In this document: positions 2,108-25,734 of the stretch, in pieces
How positions within the stretch are numbered: the stretch's first letter is position 1
Layout: each line of letters starts with the position of its first letter
DNA from: a virus
Taxonomy: Duplodnaviria; Caudoviricetes
Direction: 5' to 3' (one strand)
Length of the DNA stretch: 28,459 bases
IMG/VR virus record: IMGVR_UViG_3300049009_000331
Coordinates: 1-28,459 of that record
Made by a program: the position numbers and the translations under genes
The notes under the pieces: model-generated
Seen by the model: the letters and a program-made list of their open reading frames with translations, nothing else
Database searches by the model: none
Told to the model about the DNA's origin: nothing

Positions 2108-4237
2108 TTAAGGCATCGGATTACGATCAACGTAGTACATCATAACGATGGAATGCCCTTGTCTCTTGCGATCCTTCTTGTATCCAAGGGATGTGAGTAT
2201 AGAGCCAATGCGCTGAGTGTTGAGGTAGTTAAACTTTGTATCCATCATCAAGAACTGTTGTATCTCAGTAAGTGACATCCACTCACCATACAAAGTTGCA
2301 GGCTTTAGCTTTTTATGTATTAGGTCATCCTCAGGAGTTGATACCTTGTACATCTCGGTTGCAGCGTTAAGCTTTAAGATGTCATCGCCAAGCAGCTTGT
2401 AGTTGGCTCCCATCTGGAACATGCAGAAGAGCTCGCGCCATAAGCCATCCTTGTCGCACTGGTTGTATAGGTCTTGGTCAATGTCAAGGATATGGATTGG
2501 CATGATGCGCCTGTTGCCTGTTGGATCACTAAGTATCTGCATCTCGTTTGATGTACCGCAGAATACTGCGAGTCTTTTTAAATCTGTCGACACTCTGCCA
2601 TAAGGCTCGCGCACGTTTATAAATTCTTTGGATGTGAGCTCCTTCATTCGCTTCTCTTCGCGCTTTGACTTTCCGCCGTACTCGTCATCATTGATTATGA
2701 TTTTGCCGCACATAAGAATCTCGTCATCCTTTCCTGCATCCATCTTGGACTCCGCGTATAGGTAACGGATTGGCTTTGGAAGGATATATCGGAACCAATG
2801 CGTCTTACCAGTGCCTTGCTTCTCTCCGCAGAAGACAAGCACAAGCTCTGACTTATGACCGTAAGCAGATGCGACTATTGAAAGCAGCCAAGTAAGTATG
2901 AAGAAGTCGGCATGCTCAGTGTCGGTGTTTACGCTGCTAAGTAGTAGCTGAATGTTCGGCCATTGGTCGTTGTTGTACTCATACAATTGTTCTTCAAAGA
3001 ACTCATGCAATGGGTTGTATGTTGGTATGCGATTGGAGAATATTATCGATGTGACCAGGTCTTTGTTGGACTCCTTGAATACTGCTTTTGTATCAAGGAA
3101 CATTGAGTTAATGTCACTATCATCGATTGCCCTGCCGTTAAGTTCAATCTTTCGAGTGATAAGATTCTTCTTAAGGTCGAATGTATTAATGTATGCAGCA
3201 ATGTCCTCGCTTACCGACTCTGATTTAAATTTGATATCCTTGCTTACTATCTGCTCAACTATTTCTGTCGACTCTTCCGCACTGAAGCCCCCTTGTTTTT
3301 CAAGTGTCTCGATTATGGCTTCCTTCGATAGCCCTGCCGCCTTTTGCGAGGTGGTGAATCTCGCAATTGCCTTGGTGTGCTCTGAGTAGATGTCGATGCC
3401 GTTCTGCTTAGCGTGGTAGTATATTGTGCCGATTGTCGACTTCTTGCCTTTTGTTTCGCTGTGATTCTTAAGGCAAGCGGTGAACTGGCTGTCGCAGTCC
3501 AGTGAGTTGTACTTCGAGCTGTGCGAAGATAAGGTGTGAAAGTAGTCGCGGCCTTGCTCTTGGAACTCTTGCACAAGGGCATAGCAGATGCGCACCCAAT
3601 CGGAGTAGTCTTCGCATAGGTTGATGCCTTTCTCATCCATCTGCTTTATCATTGCATCAAAGTCGGTTTTAATTACCATTACTTTTGGATGCTTGGGCTC
3701 TTTCTTTTTAGGTAGGTACTTCTTGAATATTGCTGATTTGGTATTAAGCAGCATGAATGGATCGTAAGAAACGAATCGAGCACGGGATACATTCTTTCCG
3801 GACTGATCTACGATAAGCTGATACTCGCTGTAAAGGTATGCAGCAATGCCATTGAAGGCATCGAGGTGACGAGTGCCGTCAATCTTTACAATAAGGCATA
3901 GGCCGTTGCCTCCGATAGATAGAAATGCAGCATAGAGATAGTGGTCAGCACCTATGCGGTCCTTGGTGGCTTGAGCATCTTCAAGGTTGTCGATGTCGAT
4001 GGCAATGAATCCTGAGTGCTGTCGGATTGCATCATCCTTGCGAGCGGAGAATGAGCCGCTGATGGTAACCAGTGGAGCGGTTTTCTTCTTAAGGTCTTTA
4101 ATTTCTTTTGTTGGTGCATTGCGCACATCGAATACTATGTCTTGCCATTTGCCTGACTGTACTCCTTCGAGAAAGCTTGCAAGTTCGATGTCGGTGTCTT
4201 GGGAATCATGAATGTTCTTATAGGAGGATATCAGCAT
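2108..4237 (-). CDS. DNA primase-helicase (BT4734-like/VirE N-terminal primase domain, PriCT-2 domain, VirE/VapE P-loop domain)
   Basis: SGFIAIDID and FLSIGGNGL primase motifs, YSDWVRICYAL PriCT-2 motif, Walker A GEKQGTGKT, Walker B IIINDDE, and RxPYG/DPTGNRR motifs typical of VirE. Confidence 0.9.
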   Translation of the reverse strand: MLISSYKNIHDSQDTDIELASFLEGVQSGKWQDIVFDVRNAPTKEIKDLKKKTAPLVTISGSFSARKDDAIRQHSGFIAIDIDNLEDAQATKDRIGADHYLYAAFLSIGGNGLCLIVKIDGTRHLDAFNGIAAYLYSEYQLIVDQSGKNVSRARFVSYDPFMLLNTKSAIFKKYLPKKKEPKHPKVMVIKTDFDAMIKQMDEKGINLCEDYSDWVRICYALVQEFQEQGRDYFHTLSSHSSKYNSLDCDSQFTACLKNHSETKGKKSTIGTIYYHAKQNGIDIYSEHTKAIARFTTSQKAAGLSKEAIIETLEKQGGFSAEESTEIVEQIVSKDIKFKSESVSEDIAAYINTFDLKKNLITRKIELNGRAIDDSDINSMFLDTKAVFKESNKDLVTSIIFSNRIPTYNPLHEFFEEQLYEYNNDQWPNIQLLLSSVNTDTEHADFFILTWLLSIVASAYGHKSELVLVFCGEKQGTGKTHWFRYILPKPIRYLYAESKMDAGKDDEILMCGKIIINDDEYGGKSKREEKRMKELTSKEFINVREPYGRVSTDLKRLAVFCGTSNEMQILSDPTGNRRIMPIHILDIDQDLYNQCDKDGLWRELFCMFQMGANYKLLGDDILKLNAATEMYKVSTPEDDLIHKKLKPATLYGEWMSLTEIQQFLMMDTKFNYLNTQRIGSILTSLGYKKDRKRQGHSIVMMYYVDRNPMP

Positions 4238-6584
4238 TATATATTGATTTTAGGGTTGTTTTTAGTTTCTCATCAGCCAAGTCTTTGTGGAAGCGGTTGA
4301 ATTTCCTGTTGCGTTCATGACACCAGAGCCTCGCAATTTCGTAATTCTTTTTTGCAATATGTTGGTAGTTGTCTGCATTTAATTTCTTGATGTTCTTTTT
4401 TGCAAGCAGGGCAACATGTTCGATGGCTACGAACAGGGATCGGTATTCCTTGTGGTGCTCGTTCATAGCGATGAGCTTCTTGATGTCCACGCTGTCGGTC
4501 ATTAGGATAAAGTCCTCAATGCCTTGATCAAGGACTATCTTCTTGGGGAAGACGTGGCCGCAATAGCATTCCATCTTCGATGTGTGCAATAACGCTGCAC
4601 ACTTGGGGCACTCTTTTACGGGAGCAACTCCTGCGCCTGGCTTCTTGGGATTGTGGAAGATATCCTCCCAATTTCGGGAAGCAGCCCATGAGCCGTGCGT
4701 CATGCAATTACCACCAAGGTCGATGATGGTGAATGCAAGCTTTATTGGATGCGGCCTTGCACCTCTGCCGCACATCTGAAGCCATAAGGGCATCGATGCT
4801 GTTGCCTTGTTAACGATGACGGTCTCGATGTCGGGTTGGTCGAAGCCTGTTGTTGCAATTCCGATGTTGTTAAGGATGGCATCTGGAGTATTTGCGAACC
4901 ACTCGAGTGTCTCAACGCGATCTGTTGAGGTAGCATCGAGATGGCGCGAGTTGAATCCTGCTTCGATGAATGCGGCATTTACTGCTTGCGAGTGCTCGAC
5001 ATTGCAATTGAAGATGATTGTCTTGCGCCCGAGTGAATGCTTTTGGTAGGCTTTGAGAGTGGTGTCGATGTACTTGGGCTCTTTGTACATTGCGCCCATC
5101 TGTGCTTGGTCGAAGTCGCCTGCTTTCATTTTTAGCTTAGCACGTTCCACAATGGATGATGATGAATAGGTCTGCTCAGGGCAAAGAAAGCCTTGCTCTA
5201 TGAGCTCGGGGATGTCGATGCCGCACACGATGTCATCGAAGTAGTTGCGAAGTGGATTGGTCTTCTTGGCGGCGAGTGGAGTGGCAGTGAAGCCGATGAT
5301 GTACTGCTCCTTGAAGTGGTCAATCACCTTGGTGAAGTTGCCGATGTGGCAATTATGCACAAGAACACCATTAGCAAAATAATTGTTATTGCCTTCTACT
5401 TCTATATTGTAGACAAAGTTTGAATTACTTTTGCTATCTGTTTCACATCGTTTAAAATCTCCTTGTTGGTAAATCTCAATACTTTGTACCCTTTGCTTTG
5501 AAGGAACTCTTGTTTTCTCTTGTCTTTCTTTTGAACAGTTAAAGAGAGGTGATTTCCCCCATCCACCTCTATTGCTATCTTCTTTTGAGGAAAACCTAAA
5601 TCTATTTTGTAATGATGAGGCTGATAACCATTTCCAGTAACAATAACTAATTCTGGAAACCAACCTTCTCCAAGTTCTTGTAAAAGCATTTTTTGTGGTA
5701 CTGTCATTCCCCTTCCATTGCCACCTTGAATTATTGGTTTGTGTCCAATCCTTTTCAAACTTTCTTTCATTTTTAAAAGAGTATCTGGATTCATCATTGG
5801 ATTTTTTAAGGTCATTCTTTCTGAGTGCATTTTTGCATAATAATACCCCTTGCAAGATGAAGAACAAAAAGTTGTTCCATTTTTTTTGTGTTTCCACATC
5901 CTCGATTTCCAAGCTCCTTCCGAATAATTTTCTTTTTTCAGTGTAAGATTGCAGCGTGTGCAGTTTATTGAGTCCATAAGTTAAATCATTTATTTGTAAA
6001 TCTTTTGCAGGAATATATCCTTTTCCTTCTACAAAGATAGGGTGTTCTTGTGTGCATACAAACGACGCACAAGAGAAATTTATTAACAATAAATCATTAT
6101 AAGTTTCTTTTTTAGAAGTAGCAATTACTTTTCTTTTTTCAATTAATCCAGTGCTATGATTATAGCTATCAACATAATCTCCGTAAACAATATCTTCAAT
6201 ATTTTTACCCGAAACTTTTGTTCCTGCTATAAAGCATTCATCTACTATTACCATTCCGATGTTCTCGAATAGATGCAGCCGCTTGTGAGCTGACTCCACC
6301 ATTGCGACATACACGCGAGCAGGCGGTATGTTCTTCATTCCGGCAACAACTTTCTGCACTGGAAGTCGAATGGCTTTGGCCGCTTGTGTGAGCAGTTCTT
6401 CTCGGTGAACTAAGATGAGCACATCTTGTGTGCTTCGAGCGCAGTAGCGGTCACATATCTCCGCGAAGCATACTGTCTTGCCTCCACCTGTTGCGAGCTG
6501 AGCAACCACCTTTCGATGGATGCGCAGCTTCGCAGAGATGTTGTTGATGAAGCGTTCTTGGTATTCTCTTAGTTGCAGCATCAC
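4218..6584 (-). CDS. SF2 DEAD/DEAH-box helicase (RadD/UvsW-like) precursor containing an intein; about 493 aa after splicing
   Basis: Q-motif LREYQ, motif I LATGGGKT, motif II DE/CH split by the intein, motif III TAT, motif VI QMCGRGAR, and a C-terminal CPKC...CYC zinc finger. Confidence 0.92.
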   Translation of the reverse strand: MMLQLREYQERFINNISAKLRIHRKVVAQLATGGGKTVCFAEICDRYCARSTQDVLILVHREELLTQAAKAIRLPVQKVVAGMKNIPPARVYVAMVESAHKRLHLFENIGMVIVDECFIAGTKVSGKNIEDIVYGDYVDSYNHSTGLIEKRKVIATSKKETYNDLLLINFSCASFVCTQEHPIFVEGKGYIPAKDLQINDLTYGLNKLHTLQSYTEKRKLFGRSLEIEDVETQKKWNNFLFFILQGVLLCKNALRKNDLKKSNDESRYSFKNERKFEKDWTQTNNSRWQWKGNDSTTKNAFTRTWRRLVSRISYCYWKWLSASSLQNRFRFSSKEDSNRGGWGKSPLFNCSKERQEKTRVPSKQRVQSIEIYQQGDFKRCETDSKSNSNFVYNIEVEGNNNYFANGVLVHNCHIGNFTKVIDHFKEQYIIGFTATPLAAKKTNPLRNYFDDIVCGIDIPELIEQGFLCPEQTYSSSSIVERAKLKMKAGDFDQAQMGAMYKEPKYIDTTLKAYQKHSLGRKTIIFNCNVEHSQAVNAAFIEAGFNSRHLDATSTDRVETLEWFANTPDAILNNIGIATTGFDQPDIETVIVNKATASMPLWLQMCGRGARPHPIKLAFTIIDLGGNCMTHGSWAASRNWEDIFHNPKKPGAGVAPVKECPKCAALLHTSKMECYCGHVFPKKIVLDQGIEDFILMTDSVDIKKLIAMNEHHKEYRSLFVAIEHVALLAKKNIKKLNADNYQHIAKKNYEIARLWCHERNRKFNRFHKDLADEKLKTTLKSIYNADILL
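5402..5977 (-). CDS. Vsr/DUF559-family endonuclease (putative homing endonuclease) nested in the +1 frame inside the intein
   Basis: 191 aa: CxxC...FCSSSC Zn finger, NUMOD3-like NPMMNPDTLLKMKESLK, and a Vsr-like catalytic core YKIDLGF...IAIEVDGGNH...KDKRKQEFLQSKGYKVLRFTN. Confidence 0.88.
   Translation of the reverse strand: MDSINCTRCNLTLKKENYSEGAWKSRMWKHKKNGTTFCSSSCKGYYYAKMHSERMTLKNPMMNPDTLLKMKESLKRIGHKPIIQGGNGRGMTVPQKMLLQELGEGWFPELVIVTGNGYQPHHYKIDLGFPQKKIAIEVDGGNHLSLTVQKKDKRKQEFLQSKGYKVLRFTNKEILNDVKQIAKVIQTLSTI
6032..6062 (-). promoter_or_regulatory. Consensus Bacteroidota promoter TTTG-N19-TATCTTTG inside the intein block-B codons, 54 nt upstream of the nested endonuclease ATG
   Basis: Minus strand reads TTTG TATGCACACAAGAACACCC TATCTTTG, which also encodes FVCTQEHPIFV. 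Confidence 0.65.
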
Positions 6585-6805
6585 TCGTAGGTTGAGGTGT
6601 AGTAAATTGCAGAGCTGCGATTGTAGTACTTTGGAACTCGAGTCTGTTGGTCTGTTCTTCCATCGCGATAAGCTTCAACTATCTGATCTCTTTCTTTTTC
6701 TTTGGCTTGGTCGAAAATAACTGTGTTCTTAATGTCAATCTTAACGTGGTGTTGTTCCAATTGCTCAACCAACCATTCAACTGCTGTTTGCTTTTTAGTT
6801 TCCAT
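6581..6805 (-). CDS. Small phage protein, KQTAVEWL family (74 aa)
   Basis: METKKQTAVEWL...FDQAKEKERDQIVEAY; paralog of the adjacent gene. Confidence 0.75.
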   Translation of the reverse strand: METKKQTAVEWLVEQLEQHHVKIDIKNTVIFDQAKEKERDQIVEAYRDGRTDQQTRVPKYYNRSSAIYYTSTYE

Positions 6806-7031
6806 AGGTTTCGTTGTAGTATTTTTCTGCTTCTTTTCTATATGCTGATTCAATCCAAGTATAATATTCAGGCTCGTTTACAACTGCGCCCTTTCTAAAT
6901 GATTGAATCATCTGCTCTTTTTCCATTGCGAGTGCTTGGTCAAATAAATCCAAAAATTGTGGACCAATATCGCTGCTTAACTTATTAGTCATGGCAATAA
7001 GTAACCAATGAACTGCTGTTTGCTTTTTCAT
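6795..7031 (-). CDS. Small phage protein, KQTAV.WL family paralog (78 aa)
   Basis: MKKQTAVHWL...FDQALAMEKEQMIQSF...AEKYYNETY. Shares an 18-bp identical DNA stretch with its neighbour (6779-6796 and 7011-7028). Confidence 0.75.
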   Translation of the reverse strand: MKKQTAVHWLLIAMTNKLSSDIGPQFLDLFDQALAMEKEQMIQSFRKGAVVNEPEYYTWIESAYRKEAEKYYNETYGN

Positions 7032-8647: not shown

Positions 8648-8859
8648 GACCCTATCTGTCTTACATCGGCAGGAATGAATCCACTGCCGTTTCCGTGTAC
8701 AACTTTCATCATGTCAACCTCAACCTTTGCTGAGTTGATTATGACCTGGGCGATGTCTGCGATTGCTTTCGCCTTGTCGAGCTCCATGTCGTTTTCTTTG
8801 AGCATTTCGATGATTTCGAATAAGTGATCTCTTAGATCTTCGATTTTATTTCTTGCCAT
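8644..8859 (-). CDS. Conserved small phage protein (71 aa)
   Basis: KIEDLRDHLFE...AKAIADIAQVIINSAK pattern, which commonly follows this HNH type. Confidence 0.7.
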   Translation of the reverse strand: MARNKIEDLRDHLFEIIEMLKENDMELDKAKAIADIAQVIINSAKVEVDMMKVVHGNGSGFIPADVRQIGS

Positions 8860-9437
8860 AACTTGTTCAGTGTTTTGATTGTGTCTTGAATTGGTTTAGG
8901 GTATTTAGTTATGCGATTGCGCTCCATGTTTTCCACCTTGGTGATTGCTTCCAAGTTTTCTATATCGAAATTCGAGATGTTCTTATCTCGAAAAGTCACT
9001 ATCATGTGCGGCTCGAGATTACCGTGATGCTGCTCGTAGATGTGCCGATGTTTCAGCACCCACTTGCGAGGCTCTTGAATCTTTATGTATGTATAGCCTT
9101 CTTCATCGATGCGCTCTTGACTCACTGAGCGATGGTTGTGCGGCACATTGCCCTTCTTAAACTGCGTTTCTTGGCCACCTATTTGCAGCCCTTTCATGCC
9201 CTTATTCCAAGGCACATTGCCCTTTGGGAACTGCGTACCGATGTTGCCCTTCTTGAGTCTTCCGCTGAGCTCTGTTGCAAGATACTCGGCAGTCTTATGC
9301 AGTTGGAGTGCGTGAGCTTTAGCGTAACACTGGGAGATTGACTTGCCAGTTATGAATGCCACCTCTTTAGTCGAGCGATGCGGATAGTACTCAATGAGCA
9401 ACTCGGTCTCTTGCAGCGTCCAGTTATAGCGAGTCAT
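8832..9437 (-). CDS. HNH endonuclease-family protein (HNH_3-like, degenerate active site) with N-terminal helical and FxKGNVPxN repeats
   Basis: TQFPKGNVPWN/TQFKKGNVPHN repeats, GYTYIKI, and KHRHIYE...FRDKNISNFDIENL; probable start at 9437. Confidence 0.8.
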   Translation of the reverse strand: MTRYNWTLQETELLIEYYPHRSTKEVAFITGKSISQCYAKAHALQLHKTAEYLATELSGRLKKGNIGTQFPKGNVPWNKGMKGLQIGGQETQFKKGNVPHNHRSVSQERIDEEGYTYIKIQEPRKWVLKHRHIYEQHHGNLEPHMIVTFRDKNISNFDIENLEAITKVENMERNRITKYPKPIQDTIKTLNKLWQEIKSKI

Positions 9438-9660
9438 AATACTCGCGCCCTCCTTCTTCGCCTCCTTGAGATGATGGCCTTGGAAACCTGTCGATGATTG
9501 CTTTCTGCCCATCATGATAGCCATTGGAGTAGGCTTGGATGATTGCTTCTTTTACCATGCCTTGCATCGTGTCGTTTTCTACCTCGCGTGGATCAATGAT
9601 GGCACTAAGGAAGCGGTTGAATTGGGCGAACTCTGCGCCTATGTTGTCGAGTGTGTTCAT
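9424..9660 (-). CDS. Hypothetical protein (78 aa)
   Basis: ATGA-coupled to the upstream gene; KEAIIQAYSNG...REYY motif. Confidence 0.65.
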   Translation of the reverse strand: MNTLDNIGAEFAQFNRFLSAIIDPREVENDTMQGMVKEAIIQAYSNGYHDGQKAIIDRFPRPSSQGGEEGGREYYDSL

Positions 9661-12403: not shown

Positions 12404-12512
12404 TGAGTTCAGTTTGAAGGATTGTTAGTGCAACACATACAGGCATACCACGCTCAATCACATACCAAGCGGCAACCTTAACCAGTCTCTTGTCCGCCTC
12501 CTGCTCTGTCAT
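12330..12512 (-). CDS. Hypothetical protein (60 aa)
   Basis: Start overlaps the stop of the HisKA-domain gene. Confidence 0.55.
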   Translation of the reverse strand: MTEQEADKRLVKVAAWYVIERGMPVCVALTILQTELNDKRLFWESSKELIRLIQDGICTI

Positions 12513-13075
12513 AACTCGCGAGCTGCTTTCTTGATTAGCACCTTGATGGCATCATCAAGCTTGTTGACCGATGTATGTATCATCTTAAGCAGGTCACGCT
12601 TCTCGGTGTTGTTGGCAACGGGATGGTCGAGCATCATCTGCACAAGCCCTGCTATGTTGGTCAGTGGTTGGCGAATCTCATGGCTGAGCATGAAGCGGAA
12701 CTCCTCAAGGAGCAACTTCTGCCGCTCATGATCGTGTGAGCTGATGGAGGTGACATCGACAATCTGGATGCCGACAAAGTGCAGAGTCTCGCCAATGGCG
12801 AAGCAGTTCCATACGTTGTACCGGTCGGATGTATTCTTCTGCCGAGTGCGAGCATAGACACGCGATGGCTCAGGCGCATGCTTGCGTGCCGTCTCAATGG
12901 CTTTGATGAAGTCATCCTTGTCACCTTCGATGCTTATGATGTCGGTGATTTTGGACGGCTTGATGTGGCTGCAATAGTTTTTGAACAGCTCATTGCTTGA
13001 CACAATTAGGCCGCTGTCATCACTCACCACATAGAAGAGGTCAATCGAATGTTCTAAGATGAAGAGCGAAGACAT
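12509..13075 (-). CDS. PAS-like plus histidine kinase dimerisation/phosphoacceptor (HisKA) protein lacking the ATPase domain
   Basis: PAS-like N-terminus (DLFYVVSDDSGLIVSSNELF...QIVDVT) and H-box FRFMLSHEIRQPLTNIAGLV. The ORF ends after DHp helix 2, with no N/G1/F/G2 boxes. Confidence 0.8.
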   Translation of the reverse strand: MSSLFILEHSIDLFYVVSDDSGLIVSSNELFKNYCSHIKPSKITDIISIEGDKDDFIKAIETARKHAPEPSRVYARTRQKNTSDRYNVWNCFAIGETLHFVGIQIVDVTSISSHDHERQKLLLEEFRFMLSHEIRQPLTNIAGLVQMMLDHPVANNTEKRDLLKMIHTSVNKLDDAIKVLIKKAAREL

Positions 13076-24164: not shown

Positions 24165-24222
24165 TGGGTCTCTCCATTATGTTTGAACCGCATGATTTAG
24201 ATCGGCAGTAGTTTGGTTTCAT
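24148..24222 (-). CDS. 24-aa mini-ORF MKPNYCRSKSCGSNIMERPNGTKL
   Basis: ATGA overlap with the methyltransferase stop; overlaps the portal start. Confidence 0.35.
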   Translation of the reverse strand: MKPNYCRSKSCGSNIMERPNGTKL

Positions 24223-24794
24223 CTGTGTAGTATTGAGAGCCCTCTACCTTCAGTGGTGTTGAGCGTGATTGTGTTATACTTATAGTGCGCTGCGTATTCG
24301 ACAAGCTTCTTTGGTCCATCCAAGTGGATGGTGTCATGGTAAGCAATCACACCGCCACGGCTCACCAACTTCTCCACAAGCTTGAACTCGGGAAGGATGG
24401 CAGCCCAAGAGTGGTCCGCATCCACGAAGATAAGGTCGAAGTGATTCTTCTGAAGCTTGCCAAGTTCATCCAATGAATTGCCCAAGATGAAGTCAATCGA
24501 CTTGCCACCCTCTGCCATCAATGCCGTTGTCTTGTCTGTGCGATAGTCATTGATGTCGATACCAATATACTGCCCACCCTTTGGAAGCGCATTGATTAAG
24601 TGCTGCGTTGTCTCACCCTCAAACACTCCAATCTCGAGCACCGTCATGTACTTGCTCATCTTGATTAGTGATGCTAAGAAAGCACCGCACTCATCCTCGG
24701 AGTTCCAGTCATGTCGAGCAACCTCTGTGAATGTCTCTGTTGTTACAATTGCCTTAGCCTTGCGGCCTCGTTTCTTTGGTTCAGCGTTTTCCAT
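24219..24794 (-). CDS. Class I SAM-dependent methyltransferase (Methyltransf_24-like, O-methyltransferase type)
   Basis: VLEIGVFEG, YIGIDI, FDLIFVDADH and GGVIAYHD motifs. Confidence 0.88.
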   Translation of the reverse strand: MENAEPKKRGRKAKAIVTTETFTEVARHDWNSEDECGAFLASLIKMSKYMTVLEIGVFEGETTQHLINALPKGGQYIGIDINDYRTDKTTALMAEGGKSIDFILGNSLDELGKLQKNHFDLIFVDADHSWAAILPEFKLVEKLVSRGGVIAYHDTIHLDGPKKLVEYAAHYKYNTITLNTTEGRGLSILHR

Positions 24795-25734
24795 CTGCAT
24801 ATTTATTTTGTGCAATCCTGCTTATTAGGTAGATATGTCGTTGACCAATTGCCTTGAAGTCCGCATTGAGCATCCTGTCAAGCCAGTTGATATAAAATAT
24901 CGGAGTGAAGCCTGCGCCGCCGTAGTAGCTTTGCAAGTAATAGTTTTCAGTAATCTCTTCAAAAGTCAAACCGCGCTGCATCGAGAAGTGAATCACTCCA
25001 CCCTCGCTGCCTTTGATTTGCTCGTAAGCTTTCAGCGCAGGGTCAATGCCATGAATCGCAAGTGCTACATTCATGTACAACTCATCTGGCTGCCCACCGC
25101 CCCACTTCATGCGAAGCTTCTTGATTTCGATTGGGTTGTTGGTGTAAAGGTCAAGCGCAGTGCGATAGATGGCTTCACTCTGTGAGCCTTTCACTATCCA
25201 CTGAATCGAGCTGTTGATGGCAGGCATCACGTAGGATGATAGCAAATTGAAGTGCTCCCACATTGTGTCAGCCCATGCCCACTGCATCTGCTTGAAGTCG
25301 CGCCCCTTGTCGATGGTGTGGTATCCCACGCAATGGCTTATGTAATTTTTGCCCGACTGACTTAGTTCGTCAATCATAGGCTGAATGTCTTTGAGCGCAA
25401 GAGCATCTACATCAAGGTAGAGGTTGCGGTCGTATGGCAGGTACTTGTATAAATTCATCTTGACCTTGCCCGGGTCAAGCTTCTTGTTGGTGTAGATATC
25501 ATCAGCATCGATGTCGCCAATGTCATTGATGTACTTCATGAACTCTGGGCAGTGTGATAGACCCTTTAGCTTGTCATCAAACAGCACCGTGATATTAACA
25601 TTCGGGTTGTGCTTCCTAATGCTGAAAGCAAGGTTGTAAGCAGCCCAATAGTATTGAGGCTTACCGAATGCCAAAAGCACCACCCCTGTGGTAGGAGTGA
25701 TGCTCTGAGTAGTAGCTGTTAATTCTTCCGTCAT
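24781..25734 (-). CDS. GT-A fold glycosyltransferase (GT8-like)
   Basis: GVVLLAFG..Y...AYNLAFSIR N-terminus, DxD motif NLYLDVD, NSS, and GQPDELYMN. Confidence 0.75.
   Translation of the reverse strand: MTEELTATTQSITPTTGVVLLAFGKPQYYWAAYNLAFSIRKHNPNVNITVLFDDKLKGLSHCPEFMKYINDIGDIDADDIYTNKKLDPGKVKMNLYKYLPYDRNLYLDVDALALKDIQPMIDELSQSGKNYISHCVGYHTIDKGRDFKQMQWAWADTMWEHFNLLSSYVMPAINSSIQWIVKGSQSEAIYRTALDLYTNNPIEIKKLRMKWGGGQPDELYMNVALAIHGIDPALKAYEQIKGSEGGVIHFSMQRGLTFEEITENYYLQSYYGGAGFTPIFYINWLDRMLNADFKAIGQRHIYLISRIAQNKYADGKR

Follow-up and report, generated by a model that had tools for sequence, protein, structure and literature searches.

The window analysed here is the whole of the stretch presented above, 28,459 nucleotides of a Caudoviricetes virus (Duplodnaviria; positions 1 to 28,459 of the IMG/VR record IMGVR_UViG_3300049009_000331, an 81%-complete linear virus record). 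Its minus strand carries a superfamily 2 (SF2) helicase gene of this freshwater phage, interrupted by a predicted intein, and within the intein DNA a second open reading frame (ORF), shifted by one base, encodes a putative homing nuclease. The features are collected in Table 1, where, as throughout the text, a slash marks the point of intein insertion.

Table 1. Features of the helicase locus
Feature	Position	Strand	Basis
SF2 phage helicase precursor (ResIII/DEAD and Helicase_C, C-terminal Zn ribbon), 788 aa	4218..6584	-	Pfam; phrog_16 DNA helicase, E=2e-69
N-extein, last residues Walker B IVDE	6237..6584	-	Same junction, IVDE/CHIG, in intein-free relatives
Class-1 intein, 295 aa (885 bp), 32% GC	5352..6236	-	C1, block B, block F, terminal His-Asn; Pfam, TIGR01443
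Leader of the nested ATG, A/T-rich, with in-frame stops (TAA ATG ATT TAA CTT ATG)	5978..5992	-	No Shine-Dalgarno
Overprinted +1-frame ORF, 191 aa	5402..5977	-	DUF559, E=5.7e-13 (Pfam)
C-extein, first residue Cys+1 (CHIG)	4218..5351	-	80-97% identical to 80 intein-free phage helicases across the first 184 aa

An intein and a putative nuclease in the same DNA

The intein occupies residues 117-411 of the helicase ORF and is placed in the Walker B motif (IVDE/CH). It has the features of class 1: a Hint domain, Cys1, a TxxH block B (TQEH, intein residues 62-65, nt 6053-6042), block F (VYNIEV, from 5414) and a C-terminus reading VYNIEV...VHN, followed by Cys+1. Profile matches to Pfam Intein_splicing (E=3.2e-10) and TIGR01443 (E=1.2e-8) agree with the complete class-1 intein proposed in a preliminary description of this DNA, which was made from the sequence alone. 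The insertion is precise and in frame at a conserved host motif, and its removal restores a helicase protein of a predicted 493 aa; self-splicing of the intein is predicted. The DNA had also been called very AT-rich, which we correct to a GC content of 32-34%, against 48-50% in the exteins.

No nuclease family is matched by Pfam in the intein frame and DUF559 is found solely in the +1 frame, so that the locus does not have the canonical bifunctional layout. The host frame is continuous, which sets the element apart from the split inteins of fractured genes. A group I or II intron was considered as well: the Rfam scan of 4000-7000 gave one chance snoRNA match and no ribozyme core. The single-sequence AlphaFold model of the intein frame has a pLDDT score (predicted local distance difference test) of 35.9 throughout, the Hint parts included, and is uninformative on disorder of the spacer.

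The nested protein starts with a predicted Zn-binding part (CxxC...CSxxC), continues through an NPM/HKP/GGNG linker and ends in a DUF559/Vsr-like EDxHD domain. The intact +1 ORF and its Cys motifs, both noted earlier, are confirmed, and the motifs are conserved among homologs. A database search with the protein returned 125 relatives, one of them 94% identical and likewise 191 aa long. Candidate catalytic residues are E109, D126, E137, H143 and D152, the last four being invariant in 113 sequences. The D-H spacing of 17 and the H-D spacing of 9 equal those of D196, H213 and D222 in the homing endonuclease I-Bth0305I. The AlphaFold model built from a 33-sequence alignment has a mean pLDDT of 86.7, and its top Foldseek match is 3R3P, the catalytic domain of I-Bth0305I (E=8e-4), with 3HRL and Vsr lower down; the sequence profile of the nuclease also matches 3R3P (E=1.5e-5). 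By modelled fold and by its conserved acidic residues and His the nested protein classes as a putative homing endonuclease of the Vsr-like EDxHD type. Profile searches divide the two frames as had been proposed, with Hint in the intein frame and the DUF559/Vsr-like domain in the +1 frame. The assignment to Vsr/DUF559 stands, while the PD-(D/E)xK label does not: the core is of the Vsr-derived EDxHD type and not canonical. Nor is the suggested NUMOD3-like segment confirmed: Pfam gives no NUMOD family for the window nuclease, and none is among the 25 of 41 families listed for the 33 homologs in the alignment. What the protein has instead is a Cys4 motif and a linker that is basic and helical. Elsewhere in the window a free-standing HNH_3 endonuclease gene (8832-9524, minus strand, E=1e-14) is a second candidate homing nuclease of this phage.

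The overlap and the family that shares it

Along the nested ORF no stop codon occurs in the intein frame, whereas the third frame contains 22. When the nuclease was recoded synonymously with its own codons the intein frame acquired 13.9 stops on average, and when its codons were shuffled 17.1; in neither case was any of 20,000 versions stop-free. In independent runs, a contig of 959 bp spans 5305-6257; it differs by 11 substitutions and is free of gaps, and the listed pieces from two further runs are likewise gap-free within the intein. Since none of the recodings is stop-free and the independent contig is gap-free, the dual-frame overlap is real and not an assembly error, and the earlier argument that two open frames are improbable by chance gains numbers (0 stops against about 14 expected). 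The opposite reading is that the overlap is due to chance or assembly, with indels having shifted an ordinary in-frame intein endonuclease, and true in-frame versions of the nuclease core do occur in UvrD-type helicase inteins. An indel error, however, would not give a stop-free host frame, and the register is common to 150 loci and to all five cultured-phage records checked. On the shared register, the gap-free contig and the cultured-phage records we regard an artefact as refuted; the compensating indels named in the preliminary description as the sign of one are absent from the gap-free contig.

Searches for loci with the single protein gave no close relatives, just an unrelated intein in another host and a generic DUF559 protein, and the family emerged with an alignment as the query. 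The alignment search fetched 240 loci. After removal of 73 (duplicates, those with a profile score <60, or those without the family's N-terminal region, mostly generic DUF559) the set comprises 167 distinct full-family loci. The host frame is open with the nuclease at +1 in 150 of the 167, and the third frame is open in none. These 150 span GC contents of 0.29-0.67; reading one base upstream of the nuclease frame meets no stop over the length of the nuclease, and that frame belongs to a long ORF save on short contigs. Many nuclease homologs terminate in STI, STT or STISKL, which is block F (VYN[IL]EV) read at +1.

Intein motifs were assigned by pattern among the 150, the C-terminal ones in 141 and the N-terminal ones in 133; six doubtful assignments were excluded from later counts. 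When every second of the 125 loci with both motifs was scanned with Pfam, at least 61 of the 63 host ORFs had a Hint-family match among those listed. Most of the hosts are helicases of the ResIII/SF2 or SNF2 kind, while three are terminases and two are of UvrD type. C1, TxxH and the terminal Asn are present in 113/113 motif-selected relatives and HN in 107 of them. Among 120 junctions 92 read DE/CH and 110 read DE/C or DE/S, and the codon consensus of the insertion site, GAYGAR/TGYCAY, holds across very different hosts. A search with the extein-intein junction pattern, blind to the nuclease, found six loci (four distinct), all with a +1 nuclease. Forty cultured-phage records match the family, and in each of the five inspected the host frame has no stops, the nuclease lies at +1 and the annotation names the host gene only. 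Overprinting is the normal state of a large family and not a one-off, a scale that the preliminary description had missed. A separate intein, with a longer in-frame middle, lies at L001:2752-4812 in a peptidase-like gene with a peptidoglycan-binding-like tail (judged by eye), an unusual intein host.

Selection acts on the nuclease frame. Over 56 pairs of family members, which are non-independent, the ratio of nonsynonymous to synonymous substitution rates (dN/dS), where estimable, is 0.05-0.37 in the nuclease frame, a range that leaves out three near-identical pairs, and 0.64-4.2 in the intein frame. Substitutions are concentrated at nuclease third positions. The frame-specific comparison proposed earlier thus points to purifying selection on the +1 frame in the family. 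We suggest that the in-frame middle of about 190 aa is likely a mere spacer, in which codons would be kept stop-free rather than residues kept. Together, a complete ORF in another frame, an open intein frame and selection on the nuclease frame in the family characterize the element as a non-canonical intein with an alternative-frame endonuclease.

The genetic code offers a likely explanation of the register. At +1 a silent T-to-C substitution in the third position of a nuclease codon would be enough to avoid any stop in the host frame, whereas at +2 a Met followed by K, N, I, M or T would force TGA, and such a pair is present in 146/168 family members. The code itself is thus the probable reason why the register stays at +1. 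Among pyrimidine-ending nuclease codons standing before AA, AG or GA, 0/2038 end in T in contiguous members, which is true by the way the set was selected; the T-ending fraction is 58.5% elsewhere, 73% among split members and 61% among free-standing ones.

The 17 loci whose host frame is not open comprise ten split inteins and seven free-standing nucleases. The split inteins (L131, L137, L139, L141, L176, L183, L263, L275, L277, L286) lie at the helicase Walker B site in AT-rich helicase genes, and we regard the ten pairs as candidate new trans-splicing inteins. Their +1 nuclease starts 101-104 nt before the stop of the N-half, ahead of block B and where Hint-N is encoded, and shares about 121 nt with the beginning of the C-half. 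Five of the free-standing copies (L149, L166, L254, L256, L264; the others are L180 and L301) stand directly upstream of a long ORF, often overlapping it, which is helicase-like as judged by motifs and not by Pfam; this position is consistent with homing without an intein. In UvrD-type helicase inteins (the P0123-P0142 group and P0111) the nuclease core is in frame and the Zn-binding N-terminus is apparently missing. In a rapidly built tree of 194 rows and 117 columns, in which 99 of 190 branches are open and from which three sequences without the anchor motif were left out, the split forms fall into one clade (Shimodaira-Hasegawa-like approximate likelihood ratio test, 91). As this clade is nested among contiguous overprinted forms, a direction from contiguous overprint to split is suggested; the in-frame and free-standing forms are scattered or unresolved in the tree, the split clade alone being reasonably supported.

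Proposed initiation and homing, and alternative readings

Translation of the nuclease probably begins at an internal ATG of its own. In the window an in-frame TAA stands two codons before the nested ATG and the nested TAG falls inside block F. Across 107 loci, ATG makes up 85/1605 (5.3%) of the +1-frame codons in the 15 positions before the first CxxC, compared with 12/1605 (0.75%) for the +2 frame and, within the Hint region, 203/6420 (3.2%). In 72 of the 107 an ATG lies at most 20 codons away from this CxxC. These ATGs pair more strongly with the anti-Shine-Dalgarno sequence than control ATGs do (median -5.65 vs -2.9 kcal/mol, p=3e-7). The independent initiation proposed earlier is thus supported by ATG and Shine-Dalgarno (SD) enrichment in the family. 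The start in the window has no SD, but of 11 further genes of this phage that were checked, 8 lack one as well. A scan of 5300-6400 for sigma-70 promoters found 5 sites, compared with 3.5 +/- 2.3 in shuffles, and gives no evidence of an internal promoter.

Alternatively, a programmed +1 frameshift could yield a fusion of N-extein, Hint-N and nuclease in place of internal initiation. Two such fusions ending at the nuclease stop, P0121 and P0122, exist in the databases, and the minority of loci without a nearby ATG would also fit; however, both fusions are single sequences that may be indels. In the window the +1-frame TAA leaves only 6 nt in which a shift could occur, and in the 107 loci the position of the last in-frame stop varies, with a median distance of 25 codons before the CxxC. 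RNA folding around the nested start shows neither a sequestering hairpin nor a stable structure (z=0.58), and the enrichment of ATG and SD also speaks against a frameshift, which we consider very unlikely.

The element is patchily distributed. All 80 of the closest viral helicases are intein-free and read DE/CH, DE/VH or DE/IH. In run X7 a joint that skips 885 nt represents the empty allele. Individual sediment runs contain both empty-allele joints or loose ends and intein-bearing contigs, with a summed depth that is much lower for the intein; these depths sum related phages and are not allele frequencies. Run X7 also holds a second intein-bearing variant with more divergent exteins and a 92-nt diverged patch of the same length in the nuclease (5531-5624). 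Some pairs have nucleases 61-73% identical while their exteins are just 24-35% identical. Of 17 window alleles that are rare among 31 near relatives, 5 lie within -19..+11 of the junction, where about 0.6 would be expected if they were evenly spread, and this clustering suggests a short co-conversion tract. Among cultured phages, phi673 has the element and phi674 is empty, with flanking exteins 99.1% identical; both infect the non-pathogen Corynebacterium glutamicum. In phi673 gp43 (L331:1152-3662) an unannotated +1 nuclease ORF lies in the helicase intein, with its ATG at L331:1786; the passages on the intein in the phi673 report (PMC6132909) describe the intein and not the hidden ORF.

On the frames, motifs, selection, fold, layout and patchiness described here, we consider it highly probable that the locus is an active homing element, a helicase intein with an overprinted homing nuclease of the EDxHD/Vsr-like type, which would be translated separately from the helicase. 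The nuclease would likely cut intein-free helicase alleles near the DE/CH codons, and repair would then copy the whole 885-bp element into the cut allele. The dual-coding mobile element with a separate Vsr-like nuclease that the preliminary description had put forward is in this respect supported by selection and by the layout of the family.

Several observations weigh against this interpretation. The window takes part in no dN/dS pair, and its nearest DNA relatives are about 50% identical. An in-frame ATG within 20 codons of the first CxxC is missing in 35/107 loci, most of which have one farther upstream, and by the rule used 5/133 loci have no ATG, GTG or TTG start. In several loci SD and ATG are supplied by Hint codons (e.g. 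GGA GAT...TAT G), so that the SD signal may be partly incidental, coming from the conserved Hint 'GD' codons (GGAGA). In the two RNA runs listed 14% and 0% of words matched, and neither covers the element usefully. Among the changes listed for the second variant of run X7, C>T at 5909 would make a stop at nuclease codon 23 unless neighbouring bases differ too, and decayed nuclease alleles may therefore exist. Finally, Mantel correlations between Hint and nuclease (rho 0.26), nuclease and extein (0.32) and Hint and extein (0.25) show Hint and nuclease coupled no more tightly than the others, so that travel as one fixed unit is unsupported.

The weak correlation of Hint and nuclease distances, together with the seven free-standing homologs, five of which immediately precede a long helicase-like ORF, would also suit an active selfish passenger, a nuclease that cuts elsewhere, for example in competing phages, leaves its own insertion site untargeted and uses the intein as a safe harbour. 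We find this very unlikely in view of the insertion-site codons conserved across very different hosts, the similar elements in divergent exteins, the rare alleles clustered at the junction and the patchiness among near-identical phages, and we prefer homing into the helicase site.

Two further genes of the window, both on the minus strand, are recorded here. A small gene at 12509-13075 encodes a HisKA phospho-acceptor domain (E=5.7e-10) with no ATPase domain match and adjoins the lysis genes. At 24219-25734, just upstream of the portal gene, an O-methyltransferase (E=4e-18) is preceded by a 317-aa ORF with no Pfam match, glycosyltransferase-like by eye.

Relation to known inteins and homing nucleases

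The closest structural relative of the nuclease, I-Bth0305I, in which the active-site residues D196, H213 and D222 were mutated (Taylor et al. 2011, PMC3239194), shares with it the Vsr-like catalytic fold, the Asp/His/Asp spacing and an N-terminal DNA-binding region. However, I-Bth0305I carries NUMOD2 repeats and is encoded within a recA group I intron, whereas the window nuclease has a Cys4 Zn-binding N-terminus and is overprinted on an intein. A free-standing Vsr-like endonuclease between the halves of split inteins is known from fractured genes (Dassa et al. 2009, PMC2677866). There the nuclease overlaps the C-terminal intein half, a layout shared by our ten split relatives, while the window intein is contiguous; the passages of that work that present its model do not contain a route from contiguous overprint to split.

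We would give an even chance to a broader reading: a widespread lineage of Walker B inteins, invisible to annotation and likely numbering hundreds to thousands of loci, in which the +1 overprint is stable over the long term, the register is fixed by the code, Hint codons often give the SD and the start, and split inteins arise by loss of the stop-free constraint, the reverse of the fractured-gene route. If true, the lineage would be a new source of naturally split inteins and of retargetable EDxHD nucleases, and phi673 and phi674 make it directly testable. Because the overprint is kept across GC contents of 0.29-0.67, in SF2, terminase and UvrD-type hosts and in cultured phages annotated as helicase only, some inteins whose endonuclease has been classed as degenerate may in fact be active in homing. 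One nuclease occurs in the family in four states, as a free-standing, an in-frame, an overprinted and a split form, which allows a test of nuclease gain and of the origin of split inteins, and the locus offers a natural gene overlap of about 190 codons with an explainable choice of frame.

Endonucleases out of frame with their intein have been described before. Gosselin, Arsenault and Gogarten (bioRxiv 10.1101/2025.01.02.630785) report, in actinophage inteins, LAGLIDADG and Vsr-like ORFs in antisense orientation and an endonuclease VII-like ORF on the same strand in frame 3, and term them rare. These inteins are contiguous, as in the window, and the endonuclease has an ORF of its own on top of an in-frame spacer, described there as unstructured. 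However, their Vsr-like ORF is antisense and the same-strand one is endonuclease VII-like, whereas the window family combines the Vsr/EDxHD core with a Zn-binding N-terminus on the same strand at +1. Their inteins lie in genes for DNA polymerase, minor capsid, terminase and thymidylate synthase, ours mostly in SF2 helicases at Walker B, and the overprint, rare in their account, is the majority state (150/167) in the window family.

A cyanobacterial dnaX intein with an out-of-frame LAGLIDADG nuclease (Phillips, DeSimone and Gogarten, bioRxiv 10.64898/2026.09.14.751524) is similar in its overlapping ORF, its putative SD and its frame-specific dN/dS, below 1 for the nuclease and above 1 for the intein; there, too, empty alleles occur alongside filled ones. 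It differs in nuclease superfamily, host gene and clade, and has a single insertion site. The ShiLan insertion (Arsenault et al. 2025, PMC11855218) likewise hides a homing nuclease out of frame in a stop-free, in-frame insertion of a phage gene; that nuclease is of the HNH type, however, there is no splicing domain and the host is a methylase.

In the literature we found no Vsr-like family described on the same strand within inteins at the Walker B site of helicases, although preprint supplements or subscription papers could contain one. The novelty of an out-of-frame intein endonuclease was overstated in the preliminary description, the arrangement being present in both preprints cited above. 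The architecture is thus a known one, and what is new in the window family is the nuclease type, the same-strand +1 register, the host site, the scale and the link to split inteins.

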